Shown piece after piece: positions 6,012 to 57,538 of a stretch of DNA of 64,000 nt (position 1 is the first letter of the stretch; every line of letters begins with the position of its first letter). The notes below the pieces were generated by a model, which was not told where the DNA came from, did not search any database, and was given only the letters and a program-made list of their open reading frames with translations. Origin of the DNA: Eledone cirrhosa (Eukaryota); contig OZ024745.1 of NCBI GenBank assembly GCA_964016885.1, forward strand, positions 115,320,001 to 115,384,000, written 5' to 3'. A program made the translations under genes and the position numbers.

Positions 6012-6042
<31 letters not shown>

Positions 6043-6043
6043 G

Positions 6044-6222
6044 AAAGATTCGGGACCCCAACGGTTGAGCTCCTGCCGTTTCAAGAGCTAGATCCGAACT
6101 AGCTGTTGAAACGGCAGGAGCTCAGCCGTTGGGGGCTTGAATCCTTCATAATACCCACTCCACTATCCCAAGTATCGAGTACCCTGGTGAATAATGGTCT
6201 AACTGGTTTTTACTGCATCCAT

Positions 6223-6228
<6 letters not shown>
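6044..6228 (+). mobile_element. snap-back palindromic PLE end (family A) in (TA)n
   Basis: Arms 6045-6147 around a 7-nt loop; right arm has the HHR 3' half gaaa-cggc..gagctc..gccg-tt; ~80-nt tail; (TA)n both sides. Confidence 0.75.
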
Positions 6229-6278
<50 letters not shown>

Positions 6279-6281
<3 letters not shown>

Positions 6282-6468
6282 AAAAGGTATGACTCCGACG
6301 GCAGAGCTCAAGCCGTTTCGACGGCTATTTCAGTCCTGAAATAGCCGTCGAAACGGTTTGAGCACTGCCGTCGGGGTCATACCTTTTCCTATCACCCACT
6401 CTACTACTCTAAGTATTGAGTACTCTAGTGCGTTATGGTCCATCTGGTTCCTTACCACAATTCCCTCG

Positions 6469-6470
<2 letters not shown>
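6279..6470 (+). mobile_element. snap-back palindromic PLE end (family B) in (TA)n
   Basis: Near-perfect palindrome 6279-6390 with gaaa-cggtttgagcactgccg-tc, then tail; homologous to 6545 and 31519 copies. Confidence 0.8.
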
Positions 6471-6544
<74 letters not shown>

Positions 6545-6547
<3 letters not shown>

Positions 6548-6740
6548 AAAATGTTAGACCCCGACGGCAGAGCTCAAGCCGGCTATTTCTGGACTAGCCG
6601 AGTCCAGAAATAGCCGTCGAGACGGCTTGAGCTCTGCCGTCGGGGTCTAACATTTTCCTATTACCCACTCTACTACCCTAAGTATTGAGTACTGTGGTGC
6701 GTTATGGTCCATCTGGTTCCTTACCACACCTCCTTCGTTA
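6545..6740 (+). mobile_element. snap-back palindromic PLE end (family B) in (TA)n
   Basis: Palindrome 6545-6661 plus the same tail (acccactctactac..gtattgagtac..atggtccatctggttccttaccac). Confidence 0.8.
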
Positions 6741-6752
6741 TATATATATATA

Positions 6753-7075
6753 CAAGACACACAGAAACAAGATGGCGTAGGACAGAACAGAGGAGAGGCA
6801 CAAAAACAAAGAAAACAATCCCCAGTCACTGAAGAGGTCACAGAAGTTGTGACGAAATAACTTTGACAATATATAAACAACCATCTGGTTGTGGAACCAA
6901 CCAACCAACCGGAAATTTATAAATTCCTAAATTTATAAATTTATTATAATAAATTGAAGTGAAAGCAACTGGTGCGTGTGTTTCTTATTGGCAACATGAC
7001 CCTCCCAAAGTATAACAATATCGGTTTCAACACACGTCTTCAGATAAAGAATCTTGCTAAACAAATTCAGAAACG

Positions 7076-7078
<3 letters not shown>
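6753..7078 (+). mobile_element. solo pLTR of PLE family C
   Basis: Matches the terminal repeat of the GIY-YIG element at 24.4-25.8 kb; flanked by (TA)n. Confidence 0.85.
6825..6867 (+). ncRNA. type I hammerhead ribozyme motif (family C pLTR)
   Basis: gtca-CTGAAGA-g gtcaca/tgtgac-GAAA-taac-TT-tgac; stem III pair mutated in this copy. Confidence 0.7.
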
Positions 7079-7163
<85 letters not shown>

Positions 7164-7324
7164 ATACTTTGGGAGGGTCATGTTGCCAAAGAATCTTGCT
7201 AAACAAATTCAGAAACGATATATATGTATATATATGTATATATATGTATATATGTATATATATGTATATATATATATATGTATATATATGTATATATGTA
7301 TATGTATATATATGTATATATATG

Positions 7325-7408: not shown

Positions 7409-7483
<75 letters not shown>

Positions 7484-7520
7484 CATGTACGTCAATACTC
7501 ATCCTTTTTTCTATTCAGAA

Positions 7521-7560
<40 letters not shown>

Positions 7561-7820
7561 TTCTGAATAGAAAAAAGGATGAGTATTGACGTACATAGGA
7601 CGATGTATTATTATTATCACATAGAAACGATCGTAAAGCAGTGAAGTATATTGCTAATGACTTGAATTTTTATTTCATTGTTTTAACTTATATCATGACT
7701 CTGTTTTCCTTTTGATGTTTTATTGTTTTCCGGGATTTATTTTAACGTACAACATTTTCAACATATGGATTACATTGAGTTCTTCATGCAGACTAGACCC
7801 CACAACTAACCCTGGATATT

Positions 7821-8771: not shown

Positions 8772-8773
<2 letters not shown>

Positions 8774-9335
8774 TAGGTTATTCCGGGTTGAATCGGAGGT
8801 AACCACAGTAAGTAAGGTACTCAATACATAGCAGAGTGTAACAGTTTTAATATAGATGAGATTCTACAGGACTAGAACTGTTTCATTCTTGAGAAATCAT
8901 CAGGAATCTGACTGTCCAAATAAATGTGGTGGTATTTATATCTTTTCTTATGGTAGGAGAGGGTGGGGAGTGGGATGGGTGGAGGTCATTGGTTGAAAGA
9001 AAAGGGAATTCATTAAAAGCTAAGTCTTTAAAGCTATAATTTATATTTAGAGTGACAAAGGCAGAAAGAATTCTATAAACAAGTTCAAATTGGAGTGCCA
9101 CTCCTTATTTTTAAGTTTCTCTTAAGCCAACAATGCCTATATTTCAGGTGTCTATAAGATGGTTGGGGTCAGTCATGGTTGATGGGTTTAAAGAAAAGGG
9201 AAATTATTTAAAAGCTATATCTTTAAGGCTCTACTTAGAGTGACAAAGGCAGAGAGAATTCTATAAACAAGTTCAAATATTGGGTGCCTGTCCTTATTGT
9301 CATGTTTCTCTTAAGCTATATTTCAGGAGTCTACA
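8772..9335 (-). mobile_element. PLE 3' region and pLTR (family D)
   Basis: Contains an HHR and a tail shared with 32432-32617; internal duplication 8975-9150 / 9180-9330; abuts (TA)n. Confidence 0.7.
8859..8909 (-). ncRNA. type I hammerhead ribozyme motif
   Basis: agattc-CTGATGA-tttct ca agaat-GAAA-cag ttctagtc ctg-TA-gaatct (GUA site). Confidence 0.8.
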
Positions 9336-9671: not shown

Positions 9672-9724
9672 ATTTTATTATACATATTTCGGATGTACAA
9701 CAGTACGTCCTCATCAGACAAAAT
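9672..9724 (-). ncRNA. type I hammerhead ribozyme motif
   Basis: attttgt-CTGATGA-ggacgtac tgtt gtacatcc-GAAA-tatgta-TA-ataaaat. Confidence 0.8.
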
Positions 9725-12036: not shown

Positions 12037-14394
12037 CATATATATACACATATACACACATACATACACACACACATACATACATACATATACACATACA
12101 CATACATATACACATACATATATATATATGTATATATATGTATATAAATATTAAATTTAAAGTGTATTAGAGTGTTACGCTGTAACAAACCTTACATATC
12201 TATAATGAAACAACGTCATGAAGATCTATAAATTTATGCGTTAAAATAGAAATAAAAATATTTAAAAAACGTAGAATTTCTACCAGGTTTACACATTATT
12301 ATAATTCAGGTAAACATAACTAAATGACTGAAACTATAGCGTGCTAGGTTAAAACATCTTACGTCTATTTATTTAAGGTGTTTAAGGTTCTTTATGGCAC
12401 ACTTTGACTTATATCACACCGGAATTGATGAAATAAGTATTAGACGTGTACTGAGTTAGAGCCAGTATTTGTTGTCTTGTAGAAATGCTAAAAGCAATAT
12501 TCTAATTACTGACGTTTAAGAAATGTCTAACGGTTTTATCGAACTGTGCATCTTCTCTGCTCGGTTATTTTGTCTGTATGCACTTGTTGAGAGAAGATGG
12601 GCTGTTGGTAGATCTTGAAATCAAAAGTACACATAATTCTAGATATTTCAGTTTACTCAGCTGTCGATAATACCTCCATATCCTCTGAGAATATGACCTG
12701 GAATAGACTCTCTTATATGAAACTGAGGTAAGCAACGTCTCCTATGAGCTGCAGGAGACCGTGAAATCATTTCTTTGGAAGCATTTCAAATAGATTAATG
12801 ATAACCAAGACACATTGGAGGTGTTTACAATGGGAATAATCACACCGGAAGCCAAAAGAGATGTTGGTACTTGTCTGGAATCTTCTAAGCATGAAGATAA
12901 AAATATGAAAATAAGTAAAACAATAAGGATAATGAATATTCTAAGATATTCAATAGTTTAAATTTCTTGGATCTTTCGTGTTTTATATTCCATTTAACTT
13001 TGTTCAATCAATCTATAATGGTGTTTACGTGTCGCCACTTTTCGAGCCTAACCTCGACTTCAGACATATTTTCTAGCGGTTTTTAGTCGGAAAATCTTTA
13101 AATATTATTGCAACGACACATTAAAGAGATTTAGACATATAAACAGATGATTAGATTGTTAAAATCTTTGTAGTGCTAAAATCCCCCCAGTCACTGCTAC
13201 TATAATGTTTCCTGTTCCTCTGAACAAGAAAACTGTCTCTTACTTGATGAACTCTCTTCTCCCACGAACATCATTCTTTCTATCTCCGCTTAACAAACCC
13301 CATATAATCTAGGGCGGGTAAAATTCCCGGGGTTGGCTCTTTTTAATTGCTGATAATACTTTACCGGCGTCACTCGAATAAGGTAATTATTTAACCCATA
13401 AATGAGGCCCTAACAGGTACTATTACTTCGGACCAGAGCAGACCTAAGAGTGATAAAAACTAAGAGGTAACTCCACATTCCCCACAGCTCCTGAACTCCC
13501 GAACTGCAGCCTTGCCACTGGATATAGTTTAATGTCATACCCACGATATAAATCACCTCTAAAATCGTTCTGATCAGAATTGTAACCTACAATTTTCCCC
13601 CGACCACGTTTTCCTTTCAGACATCGATTACTGACTCTCAATCTGCAGATCATTTGCTTGTTATGGGTTAGTAGTGTATATTCAACTAACCTGCATCACT
13701 CCTGGGCTTTGCTACTGATTCTGATAACGAAAAGAAAAAGGAAACAACAACTCGTAGTTCACTTTCTAGGTACCATTTCCACAGTGATTAAAATAAGGAC
13801 CACTAATACATTGATTTCAATTAAGGTCAGAATGGGTTTTCAGAGTAATAAAGGAGAACAACCAGCAGTTAACGACATTATCATTCTTAATTATGATTAT
13901 TTATCGATCCTGGAAAGACAGCAAAGTTGACAACGGTGGGATTGGAATTCAGAAGGTAAAACAATACAAATTAATATCGATAATTAACTGATTCCGTCAA
14001 TTATCCCGCCCCCCTCCCCCGAGTGTTAATATATTGATTGTCAGATAGAGAAACAAAGCCTTACTGGTACTTTATGGACCCAGTCAAAGTTGATACGCTT
14101 GTACCATTGCTAGTATCAAACAGACTGCTTCAAGCAGTCTGTTTGATACTAGCAATGTAATTGTTGCTTATAGTATTTATAAAAAGCATCACATATCCTC
14201 CCACACATTTCCCGTAATATTTATTGCTTTGTGTAATGGACGTGTGTAAGAATAACGCCTACACGAGACTAACATATGAACGAGAAAACAAGAGTCAGAA
14301 TTTGTAAATGGTTCTATGTATCTTATCTATTTCTTTCTTCCTTTTGTTGTGTTTCTAAAAAAAAATAATCCATCGTTTGAATTTAGATATTAAT

Positions 14395-16263: not shown

Positions 16264-16328
16264 TATTTTGTCTGATGAAGGCATACCATAATTTAACTTA
16301 ATATCCTTGAAATATGTATAATGAAATA
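16264..16328 (+). ncRNA. type I HHR in a ~180-bp insert between (TA)n runs
   Basis: tattttgt-CTGATGA-agg..cctt-GAAA-tatgta-TA-atgaaata; related to the 9.7/11.9 kb motif. Confidence 0.7.
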
Positions 16329-24399: not shown

Positions 24400-24591
24400 C
24401 GTTTCTGAATTTGTTTTGAATGTGTGTTAAAACCGATATTGTTATACTTTGGGAGGGTCGTGTTGCCAATAAGAAACACACGCACCAGTTGCTTTCACTC
24501 CAATTTATTATAAATTAAATTTATAAATTTAAGAATTTATAAATTTCCGGTTGGTTGGTTGGTTCCACAACCAGACGATTGTTCATATATT

Positions 24592-24634
24592 GTCAAAGTT
24601 CTTTCGTCACACATTCTGTGACCTCTTCAGTGAC
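24592..24634 (-). ncRNA. type I HHR (family C, inverted pLTR)
   Basis: gtca-CTGAAGA-g gtcaca gaatg tgtgac-GAAA-g aa c-TT-tgac. Confidence 0.78.
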
Positions 24635-24659
24635 TGGGGATTCTTTTCTTTTTTTTTTA

Positions 24660-25400: not shown

Positions 25401-25614
25401 TCACAACTTACAATTAAGGACAAAATGAAAACACACACACATAGAACAAACAACCAACCACTAACATGTAAATAAACAAATAAATAAACAAATATAAACA
25501 CACACAGACACCCGGATGTAACACATGCGCAAACTAAGCACACAACACACACAAAAACAAGATGGCGTAGGACAGAACCAAGGAGAGGCACAAAAACAAA
25601 GAAAAGAATCCCCA

Positions 25615-25657
25615 GTCACTGAAGAAGTCACAGAATATGTGACGAAAGAACTTTGAC
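25615..25657 (+). ncRNA. type I HHR (family C, 3' pLTR)
   Basis: gtca-CTGAAGA-a gtcaca gaata tgtgac-GAAA-g aa c-TT-tgac (CUU site). Confidence 0.78.
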
Positions 25658-26164
25658 AATATATGAACAATCGTCTGGTTGTGGAACCAACCAACCAACC
25701 GAAAATTTATAAATTCTTAAATTTATAATAAATTGGAGTGAAAGCAACTGGTGCGTGTGTTTCTTATTGGTTACATGATCCTCCCAAAGTATAACAATAT
25801 CGTTATATATATATATATATAATTATGATTAAAAGTTTAACAAGTTTCAATTAATCAATGAATAAAGTTTCACAATAGATTAGAAGCACTCTACAGCAGG
25901 TTTTCTGGAGTTATTAATATTACTTCAAAATATTAATATTTTGAAGTAATATATATATATATATCAAATTAAACAGTACATTATGCAAACTTACAAATAG
26001 TGGAATATTTATGTTAATTTTTGTTTGTTTAAAACCAATAATGTTATCTGGAGGAGAGAATGAATACAACAGAAATATATAAATTTTACATATAGAAGTA
26101 GTTAGCCTTGAAGTAACTCCTCTGTACTTATTTCAACTACTCAAAGATAGGAATTTCAATGCTT

Positions 26165-31518: not shown

Positions 31519-31520
<2 letters not shown>

Positions 31521-31707
31521 CGAAGGAGATGTGGTAAGGAACCAGATGGACCATAACGCACCAGAGCACTCAATACTTAGGGTAGTAGAGTGGGTAATAG
31601 GAAAAAGTATGACCCCGACGGCAGAGCTCAAGCCGTTTCGACGGCTATTTCTGGACTCCAGAAATAGCCGTTGAAACGGCTTGAGCTCTGCCGTCAGAGT
31701 CATACTA

Positions 31708-31712
<5 letters not shown>
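31519..31712 (-). mobile_element. snap-back palindromic PLE end (family B)
   Basis: Reverse copy of the 6279/6545 elements; axis in tctggactccaga; (TA)n both sides. Confidence 0.8.
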
Positions 31713-49610: not shown

Positions 49611-50295
49611 AGGGTGGATTGGCAGTATCGGTAGAGGGTCGGACGCCATGCTTTGACGCATAGAGTTACGGCCCTTGCCATTCTGATTTCAAATCCCGCC
49701 GAGGTTAACTTTGCCTCTCATCCTTACGGGGTCGATAAAATAAAGTACTGGGATAATTGTTGGCCTTGTGCCAAAAAGTAGAAACAATTATATATATATA
49801 TATTATATATATTACATATATATATATGATATATATATTATATATTTATATTATATATATATATGATATATATATTATATATAATTGTTTCTACTTTTGG
49901 CACAAGGCCAACAATTATCCAGTACATTACTGGTACTTTATTTTATCGACCCCGTAAGGATGAAAGGCAAAATTAACTTCGGCGGGATTTGAACTCAGAG
50001 CGTAAAGGGGCGTAACTATTTGCTGCAAAGCATGGTGTCCGACCCTCTACCGATACTGTCAAACCACCGCCCTAAAATTATATTATAATATTATTATTAT
50101 AGGGCGGTGAATTGGCAGTATCGGTAGAGGGTTGGACGCCATGCTTTGATGCATAGAGTTACGGCCCTTGCCATTCTGAGTTCAAATCCCGGCTAGGTTA
50201 ACTTTGCCTTTAATCCTTACGGGGTCGATAAAATAAAGTACCAGTAATGTACTGGGTAATTGTTGGCCTTGTGCCAAAAGTAGAAACAATTATAT
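49611..50295. mobile_element. three Nin/Deu SINEs in +/-/+ orientation
   Basis: +49611-49790, -49882-50072, +50101-50295, with AT-only spacers. Confidence 0.92.
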
Positions 50296-56794: not shown

Positions 56795-57538
56795 GTCTAC
56801 AACATTCCCAACTTTCTCGTAACGCTATGTAAACTTGCAATAGGTGCATCTAGACTGATATAGCATTACCATATGTTATCTTTGATTACCCAATATAACT
56901 AAACTTGCAGTTTAGTGTCAACCTATTATAAATAGCAAACAAATCTCCTTCACATCATACACTAAGCTTTTAAAACGAGGAAGCATATATTGGACAATTA
57001 AGTCCTAGATATACTGTCACTAAACCAGTCGGTGTGATCAACAGTAGAGTATCTTTGGCCAAATATTTTCCAGATCAAGGTTGCTCCAGGGTACAACAAT
57101 AACAACAACAATCGATTTATATATTATGGATGACTGATAAATCATATATCGATTGTTTTTGTTGTTGTTTTCCCATGAATCAGCGTTGATAGCCGTGGCC
57201 ATCTCATCTTTTTATGTATAGTGTACCCCAGATGACATTATCGAACAAATCCTATTTAATGTTGTAGATATGGTCTGAGAGAGATTTAGATGCTTTTCTA
57301 GAGGTTTCCGCGCTGGTTCTCTAGAATTCGAGGATACCACTATTATTAAGATATCTTAATTCTGAACATGCAAATAAACAAATAAATATAAGATATAAAT
57401 AAATAAAAAAATGCAGATCTGACTGATCAGCAAAATATGCTAATATGCAAATATGCTAATATGCAAATCAGGCCGATCAGTCATTGTATATTTTAGAAAA
57501 TATCATATATTTTCACTAGCTCTGACAGTTGGCAGGTG

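Follow-up and report, generated by a model that had tools for sequence, protein, structure and literature searches.

Palindromic inserts in (TA)n tracts of Eledone cirrhosa are the shortest copies of an abundant Hydra-clade Penelope-like retrotransposon

The window analysed here is a 64,000-nt stretch of the Eledone cirrhosa genome (assembly GCA_964016885.1, contig OZ024745.1, positions 115,320,001 to 115,384,000). It contains four inserts, at 6042-6227, 6281-6469 and 6546-6738 (+) and at 31520-31711 (-), each comprising a near-perfect palindrome of 110-114 bp and a tail of ~79 nt, with (TA)n on either side. The components of the inserts are listed in Table 1. According to DNA folding, each forms a single hairpin of -55 to -69 kcal/mol. 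An initial annotation of the window had described these palindrome-plus-tail inserts, and they are real. It had also read the right arm as the 3' half of a hammerhead, which agrees with our data: the arm runs through the 3' strand of stem II, GAAA (GAGA in the copy at 6546), CGGC..GCCG, TC or TT, and GGGG. The core box and the 5' strand of stem II are missing from all four copies.

Positions were numbered from the cleavage-site C, set as 0. On this scale, the centre of the palindrome is not the same among the four copies, and one arm ends at -40/-41 in each of them (4/4). The arms of copy 1 overlap by 3 nt, the inverted arm being the longer one. In copy 3, the last base of the junction insert may be a cap-like G, as described below, or part of a templated insert. 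The axis of the palindromes had been placed on the stem II hairpin. It lies instead at -31 to -41, on the 3' side of the stem II loop (apex -44 to -51), and the loop and 5' strand of stem II are kept in 0/4 copies.

Table 1. Components of the four palindromic inserts and the target tracts between them.
Feature	Coordinates	Strand	Remark or basis
Copy 1 (subfamily C), tailless inverted arm, parent +18 to -40/-41	6042..6101	-	subfamily C parent L382
Copy 1, tail arm, -31 to +97	6099..6227	+	cleavage-site position 6130
(TA)n target tract separating copies 1 and 2	6228..6280	.	sequence
Copy 2 (subfamily A), inverted arm, +17 to -34/-36	6281..6333	-	2-nt overlap with tail arm
Copy 2, tail arm, begins exactly at A(-40)	6332..6469	+	cleavage-site C 6372; tail 6391-6469
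(TA)n target tract separating copies 2 and 3	6470..6545	.	sequence
Copy 3, inverted arm to -40/-41	6546..6596	-	internal deletion of 8 nt
Copy 3, junction insert, 4 nt, last base G directly before A(-40)	6597..6600	.	sequence
Copy 3, tail arm, begins exactly at A(-40)	6601..6738	+	GAGA for GAAA; cleavage-site C 6641
Copy 4, tail arm, A(-40) at 31657, G before it at 31658	31520..31658	-	cleavage-site C 31617
Copy 4, tailless inverted arm, -38 to about +16	31657..31711	+	sequence and folding

Other repeats occur in the window. One of them, a canonical minimal type I hammerhead repeat with CTGAAGA, a 5 bp stem II and GAAA, is present in three copies (6823-6872 (+), 25613-25662 (+) and about 24587-24636 (-)), none of which was reported by Rfam; the copy at 6823 lies 85 bp past the palindrome cluster. 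A further repeat at 6960-7220 has CTGAAGA..GAAA at 7043 of the minus strand, together with a short, rearranged copy that spans the (TA)n tract at 7160-7215. CTGATGA..GAAA motifs lie beside (TA)n at 9717 (-) and 11911 (+), and also at 16272, 32303 and 33855 (+). The pair at 9717 and 11911 is inverted and 2.2 kb apart, as in long insertions of the Penelope-like element (PLE) described below. A related (TA)n-targeting repeat at 8772-8920 (-), also found at loci L010 and L082, shares the tail motif TATTGAGTAC and has a different upstream part. Palindromes unrelated to the PLE family lie at 50005-50169, 14096-14166, 57082-57182 and 7482-7599; the first has arms of 70 bp and an AT-rich centre, and it resembles an inverted pair of SINE-like heads.

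Longer copies of the inserts run upstream into a 3' UTR of ~1 kb and then into an ORF with RT and C-terminal GIY-YIG motifs. The full unit is 3,634 bp, and its ATG lies 191 nt past the cleavage site of the upstream pLTR. In the ORFs of loci L165 and L181, the YRDD motif and VIYQC..YIGLT were recognised by eye. The parent protein has DKT in place of DKG (HSDKTGNLY), RWR at the N-terminal RWK position (RWK, RWR or WK in the aligned homologues), the linker CxCX5C (CNCPDRSSC), and CNLC..E..N..CKH, which gives CxxC and CxH around E and N. In keeping with a Hydra-clade protein, it contains no CCHH, and the insertion target is (TA)n, as in the clade. Scoring of 7,999 candidates yielded 727 homologues; Pfam and PDB sequence searches with the parent ORF returned no hit naming the protein. 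The C-terminal GIY-YIG, DKT, RW[K/R], the CxCX5C linker, CxxC and CxH around E/N, the (TA)n target and a pLTR hammerhead are shared with the Hydra clade as described by Craig et al. 2021 (PMC8557442). Because its motifs match the published Hydra features and the alignment rows, the parent is, as judged from sequence, a Hydra-clade PLE. At 3.6 kb, the unit is longer than most Hydra elements, which are <3 kb (PMC8557442). The copies form a continuum from short palindromes up to full RT-bearing elements, and the four palindromes are the shortest copies of this abundant retrotransposon. The derivation of the inserts from a PLE with a hammerhead motif, sited in (TA)n, had been anticipated in the initial annotation, and the RT/GIY-YIG parents support it. 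ORFs of other retroelement families, apparently other PLEs, lie beside or within the parent element at L168:3-1097 (-), L181:4901-5842 (+) and L183:2085-2993 (-).

The parent carries both halves of the ribozyme-like motif. Its 5' half comprises stem I CCCC (-89 to -86), the core TTGANAA (-85 to -79) and the 5' strand of stem II (-75 to -67). A loop of ~33 nt, which holds an inner helix (apex -51 to -44), separates this strand from the 3' strand of stem II (-33 to -25). The 3' half then consists of GAAA, stem III, TC, and GGGG extended to TTCC at +17. A type I hammerhead fold fits this arrangement, with three helices around the core and the pairs G10.1-C11.1 and A15.1-U16.1. In nine aligned copies, 93.6% of cells are paired, a value obtained with a structure drawn from the same 9 sequences and uncorrected for kinship, and two-sided changes occur at 4 pairs. 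Rfam searches of the window and of 6 parent loci detected no hammerhead, the only hits being of the hairpin miRNA type and below threshold. We describe the parent motif as type I hammerhead-like and as a putative ribozyme.

The core of the parent is UUGANAA (U3-A8), not the canonical CUGANGA. Genome-wide, the 5' half has 5,241 matches; among the first 100 of these listed, the 3-8 pair is U3-A8 in 82, C3-A8 in 14, U3-G8 in 4 and C3-G8 in none, and all four bases occur at core position 7. The annotation was right that the core half is absent from the inserts in the window, but mistook its identity: parents with the CTGANGA that it predicted are missing among these 100 matches, and the parents have TTGANAA instead. 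Relaxation of the 3-8 pair in some subfamilies suggests weak or no cleavage there. A U3-A8 core also occurs in the hammerheads of Cercyon PLEs (Cervera and de la Pena 2014, PMC4209133), where pairs of hammerhead motifs on opposite strands, 100-700 bp apart, have been noted. Unlike that of the Cercyon PLEs, the motif in E. cirrhosa has a helix III that forms a stable stem of 5 bp, a long stem II enclosing an inner loop of ~33 nt, and a 3-8 pair that is relaxed in some subfamilies. For Hydra, by contrast, the canonical core has been reported (PMC8557442), and the family described here has ~10^5 copies. A search of the supplement to PMC8557442 with one 11-mer gave no match to the ribozyme-like sequence.

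The family is abundant. An exact 25-mer of the tail has 15,247 matches in the 3.0 Gb genome and its reversed control has 0, which excludes chance. Forty fixed-position stretches of 10 kb (400 kb) contained 14 tails, giving a genome-wide estimate of ~10^5 copies (95% range 57,000-176,000), and 9 of the 14 were short palindromes (7 by script and 2 more by eye). Since an initial DNA search favoured query-like copies, breakpoints were studied in a sample drawn with the tail 25-mer, namely the first 100 exact matches on contig C1, fetched irrespective of their 5' structure. This sample comes from a single chromosome, favours young copies and excludes the B subfamilies. Arms were curated by hand, as automated mapping mis-paired some loci. 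Two short arms were found at 81 of the 100 loci, no inverted arm within 300 nt at 10, a long tail arm at 7 and a long inverted arm at 1; the remaining locus (L082) was excluded as a chimera with another family, and in the 7 long copies the left arm was not scored. Scoring by regular expression gave 46 distinct centres among 52 scorable loci, which take in a few long non-palindromic copies. Together with the differing centres in the window, these counts bear out two earlier proposals, that the events are independent and that the hairpins are mass-produced.

The outer ends fall at two positions, +18 (the base of stem I) and +97 (the end of the tail), both of which are followed by TAT in the parent. 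The 20 long loci yielded 16 inverted pairs. Each of the 16 combines an end at +18 with an end at +97, and both orders with respect to the ORF occur. Among the 79 outer ends of inverted arms that were scored in the tail-selected sample, 69 lie at +16 to +22 and none at +97; the other 10 are shorter and include alignment failures on diverged stems. The exact +18 junction of one subfamily has 3,517 matches, and an internal CGTTAT site has 35. Arms of kilobase length use the same fixed +18 end. Contigs from 4 sequencing runs, whose kind was unrecorded, have loose ends bearing (TA)n at pLTR positions +18 and +97, and those of one run also at -40; the runs may come from the assembly's own sample and are not counted as independent. 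The pattern matches that of Poseidon PAc in vitro (Frangieh et al. 2024, PMC11167929), in which the tail is delimited by two RT start sites that both lie downstream of the hammerhead. In that system, both target strands are cut and extended, and ribozyme cleavage is dispensable. PAc belongs to another clade, and its start sites are reported to have no target homology, whereas TAT follows both sites here. Inverted junctions, a rule of one end of each kind and run-off at a cap do not come up in the relevant text of that study.

In addition, base pairing between the tail segment CTCTACTAC and GTAGTAGAG, situated ~20 nt past +97, would enclose that priming site. The pairing (L164:2813-3022, L165:4306-4515, L404:1601-1810) is possible only where the tail continues into the ORF leader. 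It comprises 9 bp in 6 copies that continue past +97, and no covariation was seen in these 6 copies.

The short length of the palindromes, their high copy number, their TA context and their common outer ends would also suit a MITE-like or SINE-like family descended from a few short masters. We consider this origin very improbable, given the 46 centres in 52 loci, the continuum to RT-bearing elements, and the absence from the short copies of the segment beyond +97 that is able to pair with the tail. Target duplications are unreadable within (TA)n. In place of the shared TIRs and fixed internal sequence of a MITE, we found asymmetric ends that are not TIRs, a one-sided tail and variable centres. 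A non-LTR retrozyme was rejected as well: such elements are defined by tandem direct units, each with a complete hammerhead (10.64898/2026.07.22.740005), and the short copies are inverted and have no 5' half.

The inner ends are also clustered. Among the 173 scored in the 100-locus sample, 113 lie at -41 to -33, with a peak at A(-40) (31/173). A further 20 lie upstream of -41, clustered inside stem II; 13 ends fall at -56 to -44, and 2 at or beyond -67, in the 5' strand of stem II. The breakpoints are thus non-random and within the stem II region, as had been predicted. Only 7/173 lie at the cleavage site (-3 to +2), indicating that cleaved RNA is at most a minor template. The stop rate per base is 0.003-0.007 at -32 to +10, 0.08 at -38 to -33, 0.30 at -41 to -39, 0.044 at -42 to -70 and 0 at -71 to -100. 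A minor effect of stem II on stops past -41 is possible. RT passes stems I and III before it reaches stem II, and these two stems cause hardly any stops. As the two arms start 79 nt apart yet stop at one place, the stop is positional.

The lengths of the two arms are independent and reach kilobases. At the 81 loci with two short arms, the inverted arm is longer by at least 2 nt in 39 and by at least 10 nt in 17, and the tail arm is longer in 24. At locus L031, an inverted arm of ~60 nt ending at -41 accompanies a direct arm of 1.6 kb; L033 has an inverted arm of ~1.8 kb and a short direct arm. The two arms of an insertion are usually of one subfamily: 68 of 81 pairs are within 2 subfamily-letter differences, 52 shuffled pairs have 3 or more, and 1-3/81 pairs are possibly discordant. 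This allows either one RNA or two RNAs from one source locus as template. At L326:1300-1900 (-), an inverted arm is followed by -36 to +202 and then by a second copy that runs from -41/-40 to +97. This miniature partial tandem is what a template jump at the 5' end of the RNA would produce.

These data bear on how the palindromes formed. The initial annotation had proposed that cDNA extending through stem II folds at this hairpin and then serves as its own primer for the second strand, and the clustering of breakpoints in the stem II region agrees with this. However, the fold-back junction in which the stem II loop is retained has 0 exact matches genome-wide. The equivalent junction on the inner stem has 12, against 12,210 arms that reach -40, and one of the 100 sampled copies (L046) has a join near the inner stem. 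Moreover, a self-copied cDNA cannot give an inverted arm that exceeds its template, as 39 of the 81 do. At 213 loci, the two arms stop at -40 and are separated by just one base, which is too tight for a primer hairpin, and the fixed +18 end is likewise at odds with such priming. The proposal is largely refuted by the absence of the outer-stem junction, the arm asymmetry and the fixed ends, and we regard it as having little chance of being correct.

A variant that dispenses with stem II is that tail-primed cDNA folds on a micro-hairpin at its 3' end, formed for example with a cap-derived C and a 4-nt loop, and copies itself. One common junction fits a 4-nt loop, short templated inserts are frequent, and the uniform subfamily of most arm pairs would follow. 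The mirror junction, which could not arise by this route, is nevertheless equally common: in 60 loci viewed, the commonest G junction was on tail arms in 5 cases and on tailless arms in 5. The longer inverted arms, the one-base centres and the sharing of the +18 end with kilobase-long arms also argue against this variant, and we find it improbable. By contrast, priming at two sites, with each site yielding its own cDNA, accommodates arms of independent length; we hold two-site priming followed by end-joining with good confidence.

The position at which arm ends peak may be a transcription start. A(-40) belongs to a TTYAGT motif that is conserved in subfamilies A, B and C despite divergence of the surrounding loop and that resembles the initiator consensus TCAGTY. 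The base preceding A(-40) is T at 6,702 junctions (largely templated), G at 2,992, C at 2,144 and A at 372. After junctions explained by the other arm, an insert or the flank were set aside, 13/30 G and 15/30 A remained, which scale to ~1,300 and 190, respectively. At control positions, G:A is 15:47 (-42) and 17:62 (-38) among the first 100 matches listed for each, so that the G:A excess at -40 is significant (Fisher p<1e-30); the unexplained G:A there is 2:7 and 1:9, respectively, in 30 loci each. In subfamily B, G:A before A(-40) is 85:15 (unexplained, 13:3 in 30), and in subfamily C it is 27:7.

Single-base centres of the palindromes are C or G in 44 of the first 50 listed of 213, where a templated base would be A or T. 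Three-base centres are CAG or CTG in 33/50 in subfamily B and 23/50 in subfamily A; only one cap base is required for these. The centre CG, predicted for two caps, was found in only 2 of the first 50 listed of 60 two-base centres, in which the templated AA/TT accounted for 17. In 16/30 G junctions in A and 11/24 in B, the G may be the final base of the other arm, and a very common junction type without the extra G accounts for about 13/30 C-class loci. From the excess of G, we infer that the untemplated G before A(-40) is a copied cap and that A(-40), in its initiator-like TTYAGT, is the start site of an internal promoter of the element. In L1, an untemplated G marks the capped 5' end, to which we liken the G described here, and in both L1 and SVA an untemplated 5' G has been taken as a copy of the cap (PMC4859970).

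Two other origins of the boundary at -40 were considered. First, two-site priming and end-joining may be right and -40 a stall of RT on read-through RNA, at the inner helix of stem II or a bound protein, with a non-templated C added. In the predicted fold, the 3' strand of the inner helix contains the stop, and the raised stop rate extends through -42 to -70, as a stall would allow. A stall would not readily account for a stop that is precise to the base, at the A of TTYAGT, a motif conserved in three subfamilies with different loops, for an extra G that is specific to A(-40) relative to -42 and -38, or for the near-absence of stops in stems I and III. On balance, we judge a stall unlikely, if less so than either form of self-priming. 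Second, TTYAG may be a 3' splice acceptor, and a leader added by splicing or trans-splicing the source of the boundary and G. Upstream of -38 lie a pyrimidine-rich tract and YAG, and an intron of the Drosophila virilis Penelope ends at helix I (PMC4209133). However, in 30 loci each of A and B, no constant sequence preceded the G, and same-strand joins to interior sequence numbered only 2 among the loci compared, at different places; splicing is thus a most doubtful source.

We therefore favour two-site priming in which both cDNAs end at the capped 5' end of an RNA that starts inside stem II and are then joined head to head by end-joining; we put the probability of this reading at roughly 0.6. 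In this mechanism, the endonuclease would cut both strands of the (TA)n target, and each target end would prime reverse transcription at one of the two fixed RNA sites, +18 and +97. On promoter-driven RNA, both cDNAs would run off the cap at -40. Their ends would be trimmed by a few bases and joined by host end-joining, through 0-4 nt overlaps, blunt joins or small templated inserts. The short overlaps and small inserts at the centres are what we take to be features of host end-joining.

An RNA starting at -40 is without the 5' half of the ribozyme, so that a hammerhead would form only on read-through RNA from upstream, which would also template the long copies. Short copies stop at +97 without the downstream segment that pairs with the tail and are thus likely dead ends. 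The wider scheme, in which the element has a capped start inside its own ribozyme, uses both sites once per integration and makes sterile hairpins, while read-through supplies the hammerhead and the long copies, stands in our view at about even odds.

Several of these features have precedents. An inverted architecture with a tail is already known for PLEs, and the inserts described here are its shortest form. The inverted, 5'-truncated PLE copy of Craig et al. 2021 (PMC8557442) likewise has a tail at one end only and partial tandems. Its tail is 30-40 nt rather than ~79 nt, and most copies in E. cirrhosa collapse to an arm pair of ~55 nt. Craig et al. relate the tail to endonuclease resolution, whereas the ends here behave as two priming sites used once each. 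The putative promoter has a counterpart in the D. virilis Penelope, which has an initiator-type promoter inside its pLTR (Schostak et al. 2008, PMC2377424). Transcription of that element starts 46 nt upstream of the intron ending at helix I and hence upstream of the ribozyme (PMC2377424), unlike the putative start inside stem II. In twin priming of L1 (PMC4859970), a second primer gives an inversion with small junction indels, as seen here. The second primer of L1 is described as using variable internal sites that yield non-overlapping arms (PMC4859970); here, the sites are fixed and both cDNAs copy the same stretch, which results in a palindrome. Cap run-off, a start site inside a PLE hammerhead and the use of one site of each kind were absent from the titles and abstracts of the open-access papers searched. 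Within these papers, the use of each site once per insertion, the common stop bearing a cap-like G and the putative start site inside a ribozyme appear to be new.

The origin of inverted ends and one-sided tails in PLEs is left open in the relevant text of Craig et al. 2021 (PMC8557442), and the role of the hammerhead is left unclear in the corresponding parts of that and two other studies (PMC8557442, PMC11167929, PMC4209133). The E. cirrhosa family provides in vivo constraints from a large sample: the two priming sites each serve once per insertion, the cDNAs are independent, and their common stop carries a cap-like base. If true, the proposed model would explain how Penelope-like elements make inverted ends and would account for tens of thousands of hairpins in the genome, from which double-stranded RNA or cruciforms might arise. 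Under the wider scheme, the genome would hold a base-resolution record of PLE integration and of a switch between promoter and ribozyme.
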